From Enterobacteria phage Sf101, in sequence record KJ832078: a DNA stretch of 38,742 bases. One strand, 5' to 3'. This document shows positions 25,829-33,295 of this stretch, piece after piece. The translations under genes and the position numbers were made by a program. Below the pieces are notes generated by a model that saw nothing but the letters and a program-made list of their open reading frames with translations, did no database searches and was not told the DNA's origin. Within the stretch, counting starts at the first letter, position 1. The number at the start of each line of letters is the position of its first letter.

Positions 25829-26029
25829 TCAGGCAGCCTTGTTATTCTGTTTACCAAGTTCTCTGGCAATCATTGCCGTCGTTCGTATTGCCCATTTATC
25901 GACATATTTCCCATCTTCCATTACAGGAAACATTTCTTCAGGCTTAACCATGTATTCCGATTGCAGCTTGCATCCATTGCATCGCTTGAATTGTCCACAC
26001 CATTGATTTGTATCAATAGTCGTAGTCAT
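25829..26029 (-). CDS. ral: Ral restriction-alleviation protein
   Basis: 66 aa MTTTIDTNQWCGQFKRCNGCKLQSEYMVKPEEMFPVMEDGKYVDKWAIRTTAMIARELGKQNNKAA, matching lambda Ral as recalled. Confidence 0.85.
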   Translation of the reverse strand: MTTTIDTNQWCGQFKRCNGCKLQSEYMVKPEEMFPVMEDGKYVDKWAIRTTAMIARELGKQNNKAA

Positions 26030-26089
26030 ACGGATAGTCCTGGTATTGTTCCATCACATCCTGAGGATGCTCTTCGAACTCTTCAAATT
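26003..26089 (-). CDS. Acidic micro-ORF (lambda orf28 position)
   Basis: 28 aa (MEEEFEEFEEHPQDVMEQYQDYPYDYDY) between N and ral, overlapping the ral start; hand-translated. Confidence 0.3.
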
Positions 26090-26107
26090 CTTCTTCCATA
26101 TCTCACC

Positions 26108-26434
26108 TCAAATAAGTGGTTTGCTGCCTAATTTCATTTTCTGGCGACCAACACAAGTCACACCCATTTCACTGCGTGGCTTGCTGTACCATGTGCGCTG
26201 ATTCTTGCGCTCAATACGTTGCAGGTTGCTTTCAATCTGTTCGTGGTATTCAGCCAGCACCGTAAGGTCTATCGGATTCAGTGCGCTTTCTACTCGTGAT
26301 TTCGGTTTGCGATTCAGCGAGAGAATAGGGCGGTTAACTGGTTTTGCGCTTACCCCAACTAACAGGGGATTTGCTGCTTTCCATTGAGCCTGTTTCTCTG
26401 CGCGACGTTCGCGGCGGCGTGTTTGTGCATCCAT
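26108..26434 (-). CDS. N: Antitermination protein N (lambda type)
   Basis: 108 aa with arginine-rich motif MDAQTRRRERRAEKQAQWKAANPLLVG...; near-identical to lambda N as recalled. Confidence 0.9.
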   Translation of the reverse strand: MDAQTRRRERRAEKQAQWKAANPLLVGVSAKPVNRPILSLNRKPKSRVESALNPIDLTVLAEYHEQIESNLQRIERKNQRTWYSKPRSEMGVTCVGRQKMKLGSKPLI

Positions 26435-26701
26435 CTGGATTCTCCTGTCAGTTAGCTTTGGTGGTGTGGTGGCTGGTAGTCTAGCTCCAGCTTGTTGAGT
26501 CTCATTCGGAGGGGTATAACCGGCACCCCAGCGATTTTTCCATGCGACAACGTGCGCGTTATGGCGGCCTTATCGCCCGCGGCTCCCCATCTCGTCCACG
26601 CTATTGCTAGCGTTGGGAGCGCTTCACCGCTCAACAGTAGGTAAGCACTTGCCAGTGACTAGCTGGCTTCACCACACCCCAAAGCCTTCTGCTTTGAATG
26701 C

Positions 26702-26732
26702 TGCCCTTCTTCAGGGCTTAATTTTTAAGAGC
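26702..26732 (-). promoter_or_regulatory. nutL (boxB hairpin + boxA-like element)
   Basis: Minus strand reads GCTCTTAAAAATTAAGCCCTGAAGAAGGGCA; boxB GCCCTGAAGAAGGGC is the plus-strand palindrome at 26702-26716. Confidence 0.7.
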
Positions 26733-26777
26733 CTCACCTTCATGGTGGTCAGTGCGTCCTGCTGATGGCTTAAAATT

Positions 26778-26814
26778 ACAAGAAAGATTGTATATTGTAA
26801 ACAAGAAATATTGT
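26778..26814. promoter_or_regulatory. OL operators (434-type ACAA-N6-TTGT sites) / PL region
   Basis: ACAAGAAAGATTGT (26778-26791) and ACAAGAAATATTGT (26801-26814), with a possible third degenerate site between them. Confidence 0.7.
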
Positions 26815-26894
26815 AAAAAGGGGCGTGAAAAACAAACTCCATTGTTTTTAAATGAAAAATAGTTTGTTTTTGGTTATCGAGATTGAGGTGGGGA

Positions 26895-28247
<1,353 letters not shown>

Positions 28248-28255
28248 GACATTCC

Positions 28256-28287
28256 CGCTCTTACACATCCCAGCCCTGAAAAAGGGC
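28256..28287 (+). promoter_or_regulatory. nutR (boxA CGCTCTTAC + boxB GCCCTGAAAAAGGGC)
   Basis: boxA at 28256-28264, boxB hairpin at 28273-28287, directly after cro. Confidence 0.8.
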
Positions 28288-28363
28288 ATTACCAGAAACA
28301 AATCTCTATGGTTTTGCGTTTCTTTGCGAAGCCAACTCTATCTAATCATTAAGGAAATTATCT

Positions 28364-28645
28364 ATGGGTACTATTGCAACTAAAAGCAAGAAAGCGGCTC
28401 GCATCGAGTCAGCCTTGCTGAACAAACTGGCACTGATGGGGCAGAAGACATTCGCTCGAGCAATGGGGGTTCCTGAATATCAGGTAAGCCGATGGAAGAA
28501 TGGTTTCTTCTCGCAGGTAAGCATGATGCTTGCTGTTCTGGAATACGGAATCGAAGACGATGAAATGGCTGAATTGACTAAGCGGCTTGCCGATTACCTG
28601 ACAAAAGAAAAAGCCCCGAAGAACGGCGAATTCTTCGAGGCCTAA
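28364..28645 (+). CDS. cII: CII-like transcriptional activator
   Basis: 93 aa; [14 protein letters not shown]...QVSRWK...[19 protein letters not shown] parallels lambda CII. Confidence 0.85.
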
Positions 28646-28679
28646 TGTAGAAAGACTGGATCAATCCACGGGAGTAATT

Positions 28680-28826
28680 ATGACAAAACAACTCAGTCCT
28701 TACCAGGACAAAATTCACAAACACATACTACGTGATCGCTTCCTGTCCAGCTTCAAGCAGCCTGGTCGATTCCGGGCTGAGTTGGAAAAAGTGAAGCTGA
28801 TGCAGAAGGAGAAAGGTCATGAGTAA
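28680..28826 (+). CDS. Small ORF between cII and O (48 aa)
   Basis: Hand-translated [48 protein letters not shown]; its stop overlaps the O start codon. Confidence 0.35.
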
Positions 28827-29679
28827 TCTTGCAACCGTAACACATTTAAGGCCTTCACAACGGCCTGTGGAGCGTCGTGTGGCAGAAGTTGAAGATGGTT
28901 ATACCCGTCTTGCAAATGCCCTGTATGAAGAGCTTATCGGAGCAGATTTAACGAAAAATCAGAGCAAGGTTGCCCACGCCATATGCCGTAAAACATACGG
29001 CTACGGTAAAAAGATGGATCGCATCTCTGATAGTCAGTTAGCTCAAATTACCAGGCTGCCAAGACAGAAGGTAAACAAGGCCAAGAATGAGCTTATCGCG
29101 ATGAAGGTTATCCTTCGCGAAGGCCAGCAAATCGGGCCTAACAAGAACATCGAGGAATGGCAAATAGAAGGGTGTCACTACTCTGGTGATAATGTCACTG
29201 CATTGGTGACAAAAAGTGTCACCAAAACGGTGACAGCGCTGTCACCAAAACAGGGACACACAAAAGAAACTATTACAAAAGAAAAAAGAAATAATAAAAA
29301 CACTATGTCCGAAAGTGTTCGGACGGAGTGTGAAAAATCACATGACCGTCACGAAGAAACCGACAAGGCATTCGAGGAAATATTCTGGTGTGCAGGCATG
29401 CGGAAAGCCGGGAAGAAAAACGCAGCTTCGGCATTCAGAACACAGTTCAGGGAATGGCGTAAAACTACCAGGGGTACGGCAAGCGAGTTTGCCACGATGC
29501 TGGCAGAAGACATCGCATGCAGGAATGGTAAGCAGTTCGGATTCGACAGGTTGTTACCATCGAGCTACCTGAACGGTCAACGCTGGAACGACGAGAAGCC
29601 AGAAACTATTCAACCACAATCCAAACCATCATCCGCAATCACCGTATCGAAAACTGGCTACGTGTTTTTCGACAGGTGA
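28819..29679 (+). CDS. O: Replication initiator, lambda O-like
   Basis: 286 aa; N-terminal region resembles lambda O; contains the iteron array; RBS GGAGAAAGG upstream. Confidence 0.8.
29196..29310. repeat. Replication origin: iterons inside the O gene followed by an AT-rich tract
   Basis: Repeated GGTGACA / TGTCACC elements (tggtgacaaaaagtgtcaccaaaacggtgacagcgctgtcaccaaaaca) then a ~45-bp A-rich stretch (29267-29310), the classic lambdoid ori architecture. Confidence 0.6.
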
Positions 29680-29682
29680 ACC

Positions 29683-29790
29683 ATGAAATCAAAAATCAAA
29701 TCGCTACTGGTTGCTGGTTATAACCACGGCTGGTTAAGTATTTCGTTTGTCGATTTCTGGTTTAAAAATCTCAATCTGAGGGAATCATGA
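29683..29790 (+). CDS. Micro-ORF (35 aa) between O and primase-helicase
   Basis: MKSKIKSLLVAGYNHGWLSISFVDFWFKNLNLRES; its TGA overlaps the ATG of the next gene (ATGA). Hand-translated. Confidence 0.25.
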   Translation: MKSKIKSLLVAGYNHGWLSISFVDFWFKNLNLRES

Positions 29791-31667
29791 CGCCAAGTGA
29801 ACTTAGCGACCTGCTTTGGGCGCAGGTTGACAGGGTGGCTCCGCACCTGTTGCCAAACGGCAAGAAAGAGGGGCATGAGTGGGTTGCCGGTAACGTCAAT
29901 GGTGACAAGGGAAACAGCCTTAAGGTCAACCTTAGCGGCAAGAAAAAATGGGCTGATTTCGCTGAGGGAGACGGCGGTGACATGCTTGATTTGTGGATGG
30001 CATGTCGTGGAATTAACCTGCATCAGGCTATGCAGGAAGCGAAAGCATTTCTCGGTATCAAGGATGACGATCACCATTTCGATGCCAAACGTGAGAAAAA
30101 ATTCTCCAGACCTGATCGCAAGAAAATCGCCCGCTACGTTACCAGAACAGAATCCCATCTTGAGTACCTGCAATCGCGTGGCATATCGCCAGAAGTCGTA
30201 AAGCGCTACGAGGTTGTCAGCGGCAAGGTGTGGAATGGAGAACGAGAACTTGATGCACTGGTGCTTCCGTACAAACGCGATGGTGAGTTGTTGCAGGTCA
30301 AGCGAATCAGCACTGAGCGCCCGGACGGGAAGAAAGTCATTATGGCAGAAGGTGATTGCGAACCTTGTCTGTTCGGATGGCAGGCTCTGGACGCTGGCGT
30401 GAGGGCGGTTGTACTTTGCGAAGGCGAAATTGATTGTATGAGCTATGCGCAATACGGCATCTCGGCGTTATCCGTGCCGTTTGGTGGCGGGAAAGGCGCT
30501 AAGCAACAGTGGATTGAGTTTGAGTATCACAACCTCGACAGGTTTGAGGAAATATTCATCTCGATGGACGTTGATGATGTTGGTCGTGAAGCCGCAAGGG
30601 AAATCGCAAGCCGACTCGGTGAACATCGTTGCCGTCTTGTTACTCTGCCGTACAAAGACATCAACGAATGCCTGATGAACGGTGTTACCGAGGATGAAAT
30701 CTGGCAGTACATCGGCACGGCATCCTACTTTGATCCTGAAGAACTCTACAGCGCGCGAGAGTTTTACCAGGACACTATCAACGCTTTCTACGGCAAGCAG
30801 CAGTATCTGTTTAATCCACCGTGGGAATCTCTGGCAGATAAATTCCAGTTTCGTGAGGCCGAGTTGACGCTGGTCAATGGTGTGAACGGTCACGGAAAAA
30901 CGGAGGTTGTCGGGCATATGGCACTTGAGGCAATGCGTCAGGGTGTGAAGACGTGCATCGCGTCACTTGAGCTGAAGCCTGGTATTCTCCTTAAGCGCCT
31001 TACCCGTCAGGCGACGTGCTGCAAGATGCCGCCAGTGCTGGAAATTGACTCTGCATTTAAATTTTATGACGAAAGACTTTGGGTGTTTGGCCTGACTGGA
31101 ACGGCGAAAGCCGACAGGCTGATCGAAATATTCGACTACGCTCGCCGCCGATACGGCATCCAGTTATTCATCATCGACAGCCTGATGAAATGCGGCATAG
31201 GTGACGATGACTATAACGGGCAGAAAGCATTTGTTGACTCGATTTGTGACTTCAAAAACAAAACAAACTCCCACGTCATTCTCGTTACTCACTCCAGAAA
31301 AGGAGATAGCGAAGAAAAACCAACCGGGAAAATGGACGTAAAAGGCTCTGGAGCGATAACAGACCTGACAGACAACCTTTTTATCATCTGGCGTAACAAG
31401 GCTCGCGAGAGAGCGTTACAGAGAGTTCAGAGTGGTGAAAAGATGTCAGAGAAGGACGAACAGCTACTGGCATCTCCGGCATCTGTTTTGATGCTTGAAA
31501 AACAACGTAACGGCGAAGGTTGGGAAGGTGGTGTCCCGTTGTTCCTTGACGAGCAATCGCACCAGTTCCTGCAACTTGAATCAGGATCGCCTTATAGCTA
31601 CATCGCCAATATGCCGAAATCGGAATATGACGAGGCGTGGCGACAGGAAAACGTGACGGAGTATTAA
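29787..31667 (+). CDS. Bifunctional DNA primase (TOPRIM) / DnaB-family helicase
   Basis: 626 aa; acidic TOPRIM-like motifs (LCEGEIDCMSYAQ, ISMDVDDVGREAA); C-terminal RecA-fold with Walker A GVNGHGKT and Walker B LFIIDSL. Confidence 0.8.
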   Translation: MTPSELSDLLWAQVDRVAPHLLPNGKKEGHEWVAGNVNGDKGNSLKVNLSGKKKWADFAEGDGGDMLDLWMACRGINLHQAMQEAKAFLGIKDDDHHFDAKREKKFSRPDRKKIARYVTRTESHLEYLQSRGISPEVVKRYEVVSGKVWNGERELDALVLPYKRDGELLQVKRISTERPDGKKVIMAEGDCEPCLFGWQALDAGVRAVVLCEGEIDCMSYAQYGISALSVPFGGGKGAKQQWIEFEYHNLDRFEEIFISMDVDDVGREAAREIASRLGEHRCRLVTLPYKDINECLMNGVTEDEIWQYIGTASYFDPEELYSAREFYQDTINAFYGKQQYLFNPPWESLADKFQFREAELTLVNGVNGHGKTEVVGHMALEAMRQGVKTCIASLELKPGILLKRLTRQATCCKMPPVLEIDSAFKFYDERLWVFGLTGTAKADRLIEIFDYARRRYGIQLFIIDSLMKCGIGDDDYNGQKAFVDSICDFKNKTNSHVILVTHSRKGDSEEKPTGKMDVKGSGAITDLTDNLFIIWRNKARERALQRVQSGEKMSEKDEQLLASPASVLMLEKQRNGEGWEGGVPLFLDEQSHQFLQLESGSPYSYIANMPKSEYDEAWRQENVTEY

Positions 31668-31744
31668 ATGACCATCTACATCACTGAGCTTGTAACAGGC
31701 CTGCTGGTAATCGCAGGCCTTTTTATTTGGGGGAGAGGGAAGTC

Positions 31745-32185
31745 ATGAAAAAACTAACCTTTGAAATTCGATCTCCAGCACATCAGCAAAACGCTATTCA
31801 CGCAGTACAGCAAATCCTTCCAGACCCAACCAAACCAATCGTAGTAACCATTCAGGAACGCAACCGCAGCTTAGACCAGAATCGAAAGCTTTGGGCTTGC
31901 CTTGGTGACGTCTCTCGTCAGGTTGAATGGCATGGTCGCTGGCTGGATGCAGAAAGCTGGAAGTGTGTGTTTACCGCAGCATTAAAGCAGCAGGATGTTG
32001 TTCCTAACCTTGCCGGGAATGGCTTTGTGGTAATAGGCCAGTCAACCAGCAGGATGCGTGTAAGCGAATTTGCGGAGCTATTAGAGCTTATACAGGCATT
32101 CGGTACAGAGCGTGGCGTTAAGTGGTCAGACGAAGCGCGACTGGCTCTGGAGTGGAAAGCGAGATGGGGAGATCGGGCTGCATGA
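31745..32185 (+). CDS. ninB: NinB (Orf-family recombination protein)
   Basis: MKKLTFEIRSPAHQQNAIHAVQQILPDPTKPIVVTIQERNRSLDQNRKLWACLGD... matches lambda NinB as recalled; ORF-track start 31727 adds 6 residues. Confidence 0.9.
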   Translation: MKKLTFEIRSPAHQQNAIHAVQQILPDPTKPIVVTIQERNRSLDQNRKLWACLGDVSRQVEWHGRWLDAESWKCVFTAALKQQDVVPNLAGNGFVVIGQSTSRMRVSEFAELLELIQAFGTERGVKWSDEARLALEWKARWGDRAA

Positions 32186-32709
32186 CTATCAAATCAAATA
32201 CGCCAGCACACGACAAGGACTGCTGGCAAACGCCGCTTTGGCTTTTTGATGCACTGGATATTGAGTTTGGATTCTGGCTGGATTCGGCAGCGAGCGACAA
32301 AAATGCTCTGTGTGCTCACTGGCTAACTGAGGCCGACGACGCGCTCAATTCTGAGTGGGTAAGCCACGGTGCAATCTGGAATAACCCACCGTACAGCAAT
32401 ATCAGGCCGTGGGTGGAAAAAGCCGCTGAGCAGTGCATACAACAGCGACAGACGGTAGTTATGCTTGTGCCAGAGGATATGTCAGTCGGATGGTTCAGCA
32501 AGGCTCTGGAGAGTGTTGACGAAGTTCGCATTATCACTGATGGACGGATTAATTTTATCGAACCATCGACAGGGCTGGAGAAGAAGGGAAACAGCAAAGG
32601 CTCCATGCTGCTGATTTGGCGACCGTTCATCAGTCCTCGACGGATGTTTACTACCGTATCCAAAGCGGCATTGATGGCGATCGGGCAGGGCGTCAGGAGG
32701 GCGGCATGA
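32182..32709 (+). CDS. Dam-like N6-adenine DNA methyltransferase (orphan)
   Basis: ATG at 32182 overlaps the ninB stop; contains catalytic NPPY motif ([10 protein letters not shown]); no adjacent restriction endonuclease. Confidence 0.75.
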
Positions 32710-32882
32710 GGCGACAGCGACGAAGTTTCACCGACATCATCTGCGAAAACTGCAAATACCTTCCAACGAAACGCTCCAGAAATAAACGCAAGCCAATCCC
32801 AAAAGAATCTGACGTAAAAACCTTCAACTACACGGCTCACCTGTGGGATATCCGGTGGCTAAGACATCGTGCGAGGAAATGA
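32706..32882 (+). CDS. ninE: NinE
   Basis: [58 protein letters not shown] resembles lambda NinE; ATGA overlap with the methylase stop. Confidence 0.8.
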
Positions 32883-33295
32883 CAATGGATTATTCACAGT
32901 TAAGTGATTTTGAAATTAACAGACGAGTATGTGAGGCTTTAGATATGGAGGAGCATTTCTTCATACCTGATGACGAAGCAGACTTCGATTCTGAGCTCCC
33001 AACTGACGAAAGAGGTCCTATTTGGCAGACGCAAAAAAGGGATATTAATGGCTTCCGTTCTTCAAACGGAAATTGCTTCAATCCTTGCAATAATCCTGAA
33101 TATGCGTGGCCAATTATCACTGAAAACAAAATCAGCATAATGTTTGATAGTACCGATACGAGATATGAAGGCGAATATCACGAGTGGTGTGATGCGATTT
33201 CATCTTGTCAAAAGTTCGGAATTCAGTATCAGTCTAATCCACTCCGCGCCGCCATGATTGTCTTTCTCATGATGCAGGACGCCAATAATGCTTAG
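32879..33295 (+). CDS. NinX-like hypothetical protein
   Basis: 138 aa from ATG 32879 (overlaps the ninE stop); sits between ninE and ninF where P22 carries ninX; lower GC than neighbours. Confidence 0.45.

Follow-up and report, generated by a model that had tools for sequence, protein, structure and literature searches.

Positions 28680-31667 of the 38,742-nucleotide (nt) stretch of Enterobacteria phage Sf101 DNA analysed here (sequence record KJ832078; the window) hold a replication module in which an initiator related to phage lambda O is followed by a 626-amino-acid (aa) primase-helicase of the T7 gp4/Twinkle type. The module is the known ES18-type replication cassette of lambdoid phages, an ordinary and common arrangement. 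It probably operates through a four-step mechanism built on the initiator and the primase-helicase, in an immunity and replication region that is essentially that of phage mEp043. An earlier note on this DNA had described a mosaic module of four open reading frames (ORFs), with an O-like initiator carrying iterons and an AT-rich tract inside its gene, a fusion of a TOPRIM primase to a DnaB-family helicase, and neither a lambda P-type helicase loader nor a P22 gp12-type helicase. These points held: the ORF list reproduces the coordinates of all four ORFs, four iterons and an 85% A+T tract lie within the initiator gene, the fusion is seen in domain searches, in sequence matches to solved structures and in the predicted fold, tblastn over the window found no such loader or helicase, and joints of the mosaic fall inside the O gene. 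The implied novelty did not hold, as the ES18 record already annotates the cassette and the literature describes it. The four ORFs, of 48, 286, 35 and 626 aa, are as follows.

28680..28826, + strand: 48-aa ORF (orf48), DUF2740, homologue of P22 orf48
28819..29679, + strand: O-like replication initiator, 286 aa, PF04492/TIGR01610
29683..29790, + strand: 35-aa ORF (orf35), ES18 gp60 family, PHROG 21848
29787..31667, + strand: primase-helicase, 626 aa, T7 gp4/Twinkle type

Over 3.9 kb, the region matches phage mEp043 with 99.5% identity. In the ES18 record (AY736146), gp59 is described as 'similar to phage lambda gpO' and carries a rep_origin feature, gp60 is a 35-aa protein of 'function unknown', and gp61 is a 'putative primase/helicase; similar to phage T7 gene 4'. 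A relative of O combined with a nonhomologous primase-helicase, as in ES18, is one of three replication module types (PMC10307801). ES18 gp58-gp62 and the window share the order of a small ORF, an O-like gene with an internal origin (ori), a 35-aa ORF, a 626-aa ORF and the nin region, with identities of 95% for the C-terminal domain of O, 97% for orf35 and 94% for the primase-helicase. ES18 and epsilon34 differ from the window in having lambda-type iterons and an initiator N-terminal domain 94% identical to that of lambda O (PMC2629481). Moreover, in place of the P22 orf48 type found in the window, ES18 has gp58, a 53-aa ORF similar to HK97 gp53, and only ES18 has an extra 92-aa gp62 before ninA.

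The cassette is also present in epsilon34 (genes 49-53), g341c, SEN22, and Min27/24B-type and other Shiga toxin (Stx) phages. The module works in nature: phages mEp043 and ES18 are viable, the closest cluster of the primase-helicase family, in which more than 2,300 homologues were detected, has 5,632 members, and the block from the O C-terminal domain through the primase-helicase occurs at 95% identity or more in 296 of 5,426 complete E. coli genomes (about 5%). The names given to these proteins in the sources are 'bifunctional DNA primase/helicase', 'toprim domain-containing protein' and 'Twinkle'. The Eru1-3 modules of Stx phages are likewise alternatives to lambda O/P: Eru1 combines an SF2 DEAD-box helicase with a separate 323-aa Toprim protein and DUF1367, Eru2 an O-like protein with a DnaB-type helicase, and Eru3 another replication protein with DnaB (Llarena et al. 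2021, PMC8044961). Assignment of the window module to Eru1, Eru2 or Eru3 was rejected, as the proteins differ and none of the three has a fused primase-helicase.

The primase-helicase

The assignment of the 626-aa protein as a T7 gp4-type helicase is solid. Pfam places Toprim_2 at aa 209-296 and AAA_25/DnaB_C at aa 355-594, and the protein matches PHROG 239, 'DNA primase/helicase', with E 2e-171. A sequence search against solved structures returned T7 gp4 (E 3e-23, aa 191-539) and Twinkle (E 6e-14), and the best Foldseek matches were T7 gp4 (5ikn, E 7e-22) and Twinkle (7t8c), with Aquifex DnaG and a T7 primase fragment also found. The fold was taken from an AlphaFold2 model with a mean predicted local distance difference test (pLDDT) score of 67.7, and scores of 75-92 over the N-terminal 230 residues. 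The protein shares with T7 gp4 and Twinkle the order of Zn-ribbon region, TOPRIM domain, linker and superfamily 4 (SF4) helicase, with the catalytic residues conserved at about 21-26% overall identity. It differs from them in lacking the Cys4 zinc site.

29862..30056, + strand: Zn-ribbon-like N-terminal domain without zinc ligands, aa 26-90, TIGR01391
30411..30674, + strand: TOPRIM catalytic core, aa 209-296, PF13155 (E 3e-12)
30849..31568, + strand: SF4 (RecA-fold) helicase domain, aa 355-594, AAA_25 and DnaB_C

Residue invariance was scored over 26 primase-helicase homologues of 69-95% identity. The TOPRIM acidic residues E212, E214, D261, D263 and D291 are invariant and line up with the EGEID, DMD and KDAN motifs of T7 gp4, and the helicase motifs are equally invariant: Walker A GHGKT (K371), E395, Walker B D464, H502 and the arginine finger R574 (KQRNG). 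The N-terminal 200 aa have no Pfam match even at E <= 10, and aa 26-143 match positions 27-155 of TIGR01391 (dnaG) with E 9e-10. The Zn-ribbon-like domain is modelled as five short strands followed by helices (pLDDT 75-88). More than 20 positions in aa 31-70 are invariant, and no Cys or His is invariant in aa 26-70, so that neither a Cys4 nor a CHC2 site is formed. Homologues of lambda P, Ren and P22 gp12 were not found in the window, where tblastn gave no match better than E 0.14. An internal start of the kind that yields the T7 gene 4B product was considered and rejected, as M66 and M71 are not conserved.

Distant full-length members of the family are those of Vibrio phage 1.172.O (L123) and Pseudomonas phage CF60a (L124), with 60 and 39% identity, respectively. 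Their Zn-ribbon-like domains also have no Cys4 site, which argues that the zinc-less state is old in the family. In both phages the initiator stop overlaps the primase-helicase start, and the initiator has no GYVFF-type tail.

The C-terminus of the primase-helicase (31620-31664, aa 605-626) is conserved as ...YIANMP.SEYDE.W...NVTEY, with Y614 and V623 invariant and N622 and W618 nearly so; confidence of the model is low there. Acidic C-terminal tails ending in an aromatic residue are used by T7 gp4 and SSB to contact polymerases, and the tail of the 626-aa protein, which loosely recalls them, might by analogy contact the host replisome. A separate feature of the family is seen in Min27/24B-type Stx2 phages and a Cronobacter prophage, whose primase-helicase genes are interrupted by about 1.3 kb encoding Hint and LAGLIDADG domains. 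This insertion is an intein with a homing endonuclease, placed in the P-loop region right after Walker A (about aa 372-379), and is lacking in the window copy. The loci concerned are those of phage Min27 (L117, 4108-6690) and Cronobacter (protein P0012), with related loci in E. coli and Shigella flexneri (L026, L027). The Min27 record mis-annotates the intein-bearing gene as 'P' plus a separate 'putative DNA primase'.

Origin, initiator and mosaic joints

The O-like initiator carries the following elements, of which the first three are features of the DNA with no strand assigned.

29173..29258: iteron array of four 19-nt dyad-symmetric repeats, TGTCAC-N6-GGTGACA
29260..29300: A-rich tract, 85% A+T and 73% A on the + strand, presumed DNA-unwinding element
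29300..29331: inverted repeat (arms of 14 nt, 86% complementary) on the right-hand side of the A-rich tract, at the position of the lambda ori palindrome
28876..29160, + strand: N-terminal origin-binding domain of O, aa 20-114, PF04492/TIGR01610
29287..29676, + strand: C-terminal domain of O, aa 157-286, PHROG 33384 (E 6e-88)
29638..29676, + strand: C-terminal 13-residue tail of the initiator, candidate docking peptide, after a P/S/Q-rich linker

The iterons start at 29173, 29193, 29217 and 29240, at spacings of 20, 24 and 23 nt. Their pattern gave nine strand-hits in the window, eight of them within the array, against 0.82 expected, and none of 100 shuffles produced nine. The A-rich tract is found nearly verbatim in lambda and ES18, and the layout as a whole is that of the lambda ori, whose record places four iterons equivalently within O. 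At the same position other phages have different iterons, of the ATCCCTC type in ES18 and lambda and of a third type in Min27.

The origin-binding domain (aa 20-114) scores 128.8 bits against PF04492 (E 1e-37, cut-off 28.7) and 105.4 bits against TIGR01610 (E 2e-30, cut-off 45.5). Lambda O is 49% identical over aa 1-155 and P22 gp18 45%, with the alignments confined to initiator aa 1-158, and the C-terminal half is unrelated to the P-binding C-terminus of lambda O. Judged by sequence, the initiator is thus of lambda O type in its N-terminal domain and in-gene ori, and not in its C-terminal domain. Lambda also shares with the window the dyad symmetry of its four iterons, the A-rich tract, the flanking inverted repeat and the placement of the replication genes after cII; it differs in having P and Ren and in hijacking host DnaB, where the window phage encodes its own helicase.

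Relatives were sampled as contigs, one genome per species, with primase-helicases 66-100% identical to that of the window; they include Shimwellia, Pantoea, Xenorhabdus, Morganella, Providencia and Arsenophonus. Among them, identity of the initiator N-terminal domain ranges from 32 to 100% and does not track that of the primase-helicase. The C-terminal domain, which has no Pfam match even at E <= 10, is 46-98% identical in 19 of the 24 full loci carrying the primase-helicase. Its core also occurs in initiators of Vibrio and Pseudomonas phages that have other partners, including a DnaC-like protein. The idea that the whole domain is specific to the primase-helicase was therefore rejected, leaving only the tail as specific.

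Homology to the window begins at about 29246 in ES18-type phages and at about 29295 in Stx phages. In the alignment, the three iteron types (that of the window, that of lambda and ES18, and that of Min27) converge just to the right of the A-rich tract; lambda is common through the tract and diverges beyond it. Two joints thus flank the A-rich tract, with the N-terminal domain and iterons on one side and the O C-terminal domain, orf35 and primase-helicase on the other.

A further joint is seen at the end of the initiator gene, about 13 codons from the O stop. Enterobacterial initiators 5' of the primase-helicase all have at their C-terminus a short tail preceded by a variable P/S/Q-rich linker, and this tail is carried by at least three unrelated initiator backbones. 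In two pairs of loci (L019 vs L024, and the window vs L010), DNA identity is only about 0.45-0.5 until some 30 nt short of the initiator stop, and there, at the tail codons, it climbs to 0.8-0.9. The tail was not found on lambda O, on P22 gp18 or on three initiators with other partners. As it travels with the primase-helicase block, the tail may be a docking peptide that recruits the primase-helicase.

The mosaic extends to the whole genome, as the left half is P22-like and the right region mEp043-like. Positions 1-25000 of the window encode P22-like proteins, including the portal, DNA transfer proteins and tailspike, and the left 25 kb match phages Huey (96.2% identity), CUS-3 (94.8%) and phiv205-1 (94.2%) at 53-58% query cover. 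Phage mEp043, 99.5% identical in the immunity and replication region (28300-32200), is not among the best matches listed for the left half.

Proposed initiation mechanism

The combined results suggest a model of initiation in four steps. First, the winged-helix N-terminal domain of O would, by homology, bind the four iterons in its own gene. The resulting nucleoprotein complex would then, by analogy with the lambda ori, open the adjacent 85% A+T tract. In the third step, the C-terminal part of the initiator would recruit the phage ring helicase, with no P-type loader capturing host DnaB; the likely contact is the 13-residue tail on its flexible P/S/Q-rich linker, and the T7 gp4-like primase-helicase, as with T7 gp4 itself, would need no separate loader. 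Finally, the helicase would unwind in the 5'->3' direction while the TOPRIM domain lays primers for host DNA polymerase III (Pol III). DnaB and DnaC would then be dispensable and, probably, DnaG as well, and independence from host DnaB and DnaG is a reasonable expectation. The window phage, unlike T7, encodes no DNA polymerase of its own, and its primase-helicase must use host Pol III. The T7 origin is activated by transcription, whereas the primase-helicase of the window instead stands behind an origin-binding initiator.

A more specific version of this model is possible and put forward tentatively. In it, the tail would serve to dock the zinc-less T7 gp4-like primase-helicase at an origin of lambda type, would pass by recombination onto unrelated initiator backbones together with the primase-helicase block, and would be assisted in docking by the 35-aa protein. 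Several observations weigh against this version or against the four-step model in general. The case for docking by the tail is one of co-inheritance, and the members from Vibrio and Pseudomonas phages, in which initiator and primase-helicase start overlap directly, have no such tail. The 35-aa ORF is absent from five of the 24 full loci, which indicates that it is not essential to the mechanism. The structural model is of moderate confidence in the helicase half, as reflected in its mean pLDDT, and the searchable literature yielded no biochemical, genetic or host-dependence study of the primase-helicase. The Zn-ribbon-like domain is without any zinc ligand, C73 being the sole Cys in aa 1-190. 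The zinc domain of T7 gp4 is needed for template-directed priming, and metazoan Twinkle, in which the ligands have likewise been lost, is not known to prime. Owing to this missing site, priming by the 626-aa protein is likely, with less certainty than unwinding.

The missing ligands also give substance to the main alternative, in which the 626-aa protein is a helicase only, its zinc ribbon has degenerated and host DnaG does the priming. The Vibrio and Pseudomonas homologues are equally poor in Cys in this region, and a precedent exists in P22 gp12, for which work with host DnaG is documented (Wickner 1984, as cited in PMC8022706). This alternative is nonetheless unlikely. The metal-binding acidic residues of TOPRIM are all invariant, and the ligand-less N-terminal domain is so strongly conserved that a function appears to have been retained. 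In DnaB the N-terminal domain is the docking site for DnaG; this domain (PF00772) was not found by Pfam in the 626-aa protein, which leaves no obvious route for DnaG recruitment. The P22 system resembles the window in having orf48 with an identical 8-nt overlap, an O-like initiator with an internal ori, a phage-encoded SF4 helicase as the next gene and a 26-aa NinA immediately after it. It differs in that gp12 is DnaB-type, has no primase domain and shows no tblastn similarity to the 626-aa protein, and in the lack of a 35-aa ORF.

Small ORFs, flanking genes and significance

The earlier note held that both small ORFs overlap their neighbours stop to start, and took this to suggest that they are translated. 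Both have family matches and are conserved in relatives as coding sequence. The overlaps were confirmed between orf48 and O (8 nt, ATGAGTAA) and between orf35 and the primase-helicase (4 nt, ATGA), and not between O and orf35, which merely abuts it, starting 3 nt past the O stop (TGAACCATG). A fifth gene, a 26-aa NinA ORF that the note had not listed, directly follows the primase-helicase TAA. Shine-Dalgarno sequences are recognisable at the starts of all five genes except the 26-aa ORF. The packing of orf48, O, orf35, the primase-helicase and ninA, with stops and starts overlapping or abutting, implies that their translation is coupled and that their expression ratios are fixed.

The 35-aa ORF belongs to PHROG 21848 (E 4e-26). 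It is intact in 18 loci, at exactly 35 codons in each and over about 18 genera of Enterobacterales, and its stop invariably falls on the start of the primase-helicase, as ATGA or TGATG. The consensus reads MKSrIKsLLIAGYNHGLLSxxFVrYWFxKLxLRxx, of which the motif LLIAGYNHGLLS..FV.YWF is kept across genera whose primase-helicases are 66-83% identical. The proportion of nonsynonymous differences (pN) is 0.225 and that of synonymous differences (pS) 0.66, corresponding to a ratio of nonsynonymous to synonymous rates (dN/dS) of about 0.19, and in the shifted frames pN equals or exceeds pS. The protein is predicted to form a two-helix hairpin (AlphaFold2 pLDDT 85). The gene is kept beside the primase-helicase where the initiator is of another family (L019, L022 and L024), and no 35-aa ORF is present in the Vibrio and Pseudomonas members of the primase-helicase family. 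Given its fixed length and dN/dS, orf35 is, on this comparative evidence, a real and selected accessory gene, dispensable in some lineages; the protein most likely helps, as an accessory factor, to recruit or assemble the helicase.

The 35-aa ORF has no Pfam match even at E <= 10, and a search of 1.84 billion representatives gave five matches, essentially only its own narrow family. Two of the five, long repeat proteins with a GW..S.VDFW motif, were judged chance hits. Another, a 131-aa protein in which an O tail reads through into orf35, was rejected as a Rosetta-stone fusion and probably derives from a degraded, Arsenophonus-type prophage. Likewise, a programmed frameshift from orf35 into the primase-helicase was rejected: GGGAATCATGA offers no slippery heptamer, the junction may be ATGA or TGATG, and both genes have Shine-Dalgarno sequences of their own. 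The RefSeq/PGAP annotation leaves the 35-aa gene unannotated in the E. coli matches, as do several phage records, and the only PGAP names under those matches are 'toprim domain-containing protein' and 'replication protein'.

The 48-aa ORF is a member of DUF2740 (PF10872, E 9e-29, 99.4 bits, cut-off 27) with 85% identity to P22 orf48; HK022, VT2-Sakai and others carry an identical copy. By tblastn it was located in 125 phage records, always immediately 5' of the initiator and whichever helicase follows, and is therefore part of the cII/O N-terminal side of the mosaic and not of the primase-helicase side. It has 48 codons in five of the six homologues read out, the exception (L023) having 55. 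With pN 0.33 and pS 0.56 over five sequences, coding constraint is moderate; in the shifted frames pN exceeds pS in +1 and is slightly below it in +2.

A terminator-like hairpin with a 14-bp stem lies on the minus strand at 28611-28643, overlapping the 3' end of cII. The P22 record has a leftward terminator at the end of c1 and a leftward promoter at the 5' end of orf48. By analogy, the hairpin and these annotations suggest an oop-like antisense RNA with a promoter under the first codons of the 48-aa ORF (about 28680-28710). Rfam gave no match in 26000-33000 at E <= 0.1.

Signals of this kind enter into a second alternative, in which neither small ORF encodes a functional protein, orf35 being a spacer for coupling, or both being conserved through overlapping DNA or RNA signals such as an oop-like promoter for antisense RNA beneath orf48 and the following gene's Shine-Dalgarno sequence. 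Each ORF does end on or beside the next start codon, the last codons of orf35 (CTGAGGGAA) include the primase-helicase Shine-Dalgarno sequence, and pN is higher in its codons 28-35 (0.35) than in codons 1-27 (0.19). The P22 promoter and terminator with the matching hairpin, the only moderate selection on orf48 and the loci that lack orf35 point the same way. This explanation is distinctly improbable in view of the frame-specific constraint on orf35, its fixed length, conserved motif and confidently predicted fold, and of the standing of orf48 as a curated Pfam family of near-constant length. A third possibility, that the module is an inactive remnant of a defective prophage with intact-looking but unused ORFs, has no specific support beyond the degradation of some relatives (L023, from Arsenophonus, has no intact primase-helicase ORF, and L026 and L027 match only aa 1-372) and is extremely improbable, given that all ORFs of the module are intact, that it is 99.5% identical to plaque-forming mEp043 and that the window has complete P22-like structural genes and a normal nin region.

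The setting is that of a typical lambdoid early-right operon. The cro gene lies between the cI-like repressor gene and cII, orf48 begins 34 nt past the cII stop, and the 626-aa ORF is followed by the 26-aa NinA, NinB, Dam methylase, NinX and NinG.

27296-27928, - strand: cI-like repressor
28364-28645: cII, PF05269
31668..31748, + strand: NinA ORF, 26 aa, abutting the primase-helicase stop (TAAATG)

NinA is 96-100% identical to the NinA of P22 and ES18. Within its ORF, on the + strand at 31697-31720, is a strong terminator-like hairpin (AGGCCTGC...GCAGGCCT, then the T-run TTTTATTT), and the P22 record also has a terminator inside ninA; conservation may thus reflect the terminator as much as the peptide. 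A 158-aa ORF on the minus strand (26895-27371) lies just downstream of cI, at the position of lambda rex or other genes of lysogenic conversion. A segment resembling a signal peptide follows an internal start in it, and Pfam gave no match.

As a discovery the module is of little importance, the cassette being present in the public ES18 and mEp043 records and in about 5% of complete E. coli genomes. What is marginally new is the evidence for selection on orf35, the zinc-less ribbon and the co-inheritance of the tail with the primase-helicase block. The practical value lies in annotation, where RefSeq misses a real, selected 35-aa gene. The module is also a convenient system for the study of an origin-binding protein that recruits a self-loading primase-helicase, of DnaG/T7-type primase action without zinc ligands, and of mosaic joints at functional domain boundaries, here the ori and the tail. 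If docking by the tail is true, lambdoid phages would have a third way to load a helicase, in addition to O-P-DnaB and gp18-gp12, and a primase would be shown to function with no zinc-binding domain. Among Stx-converting phages, some (Min27/24B-type and several Stx2a records) carry the cassette, and its dependence on host proteins thus bears on the biology of prophage induction.

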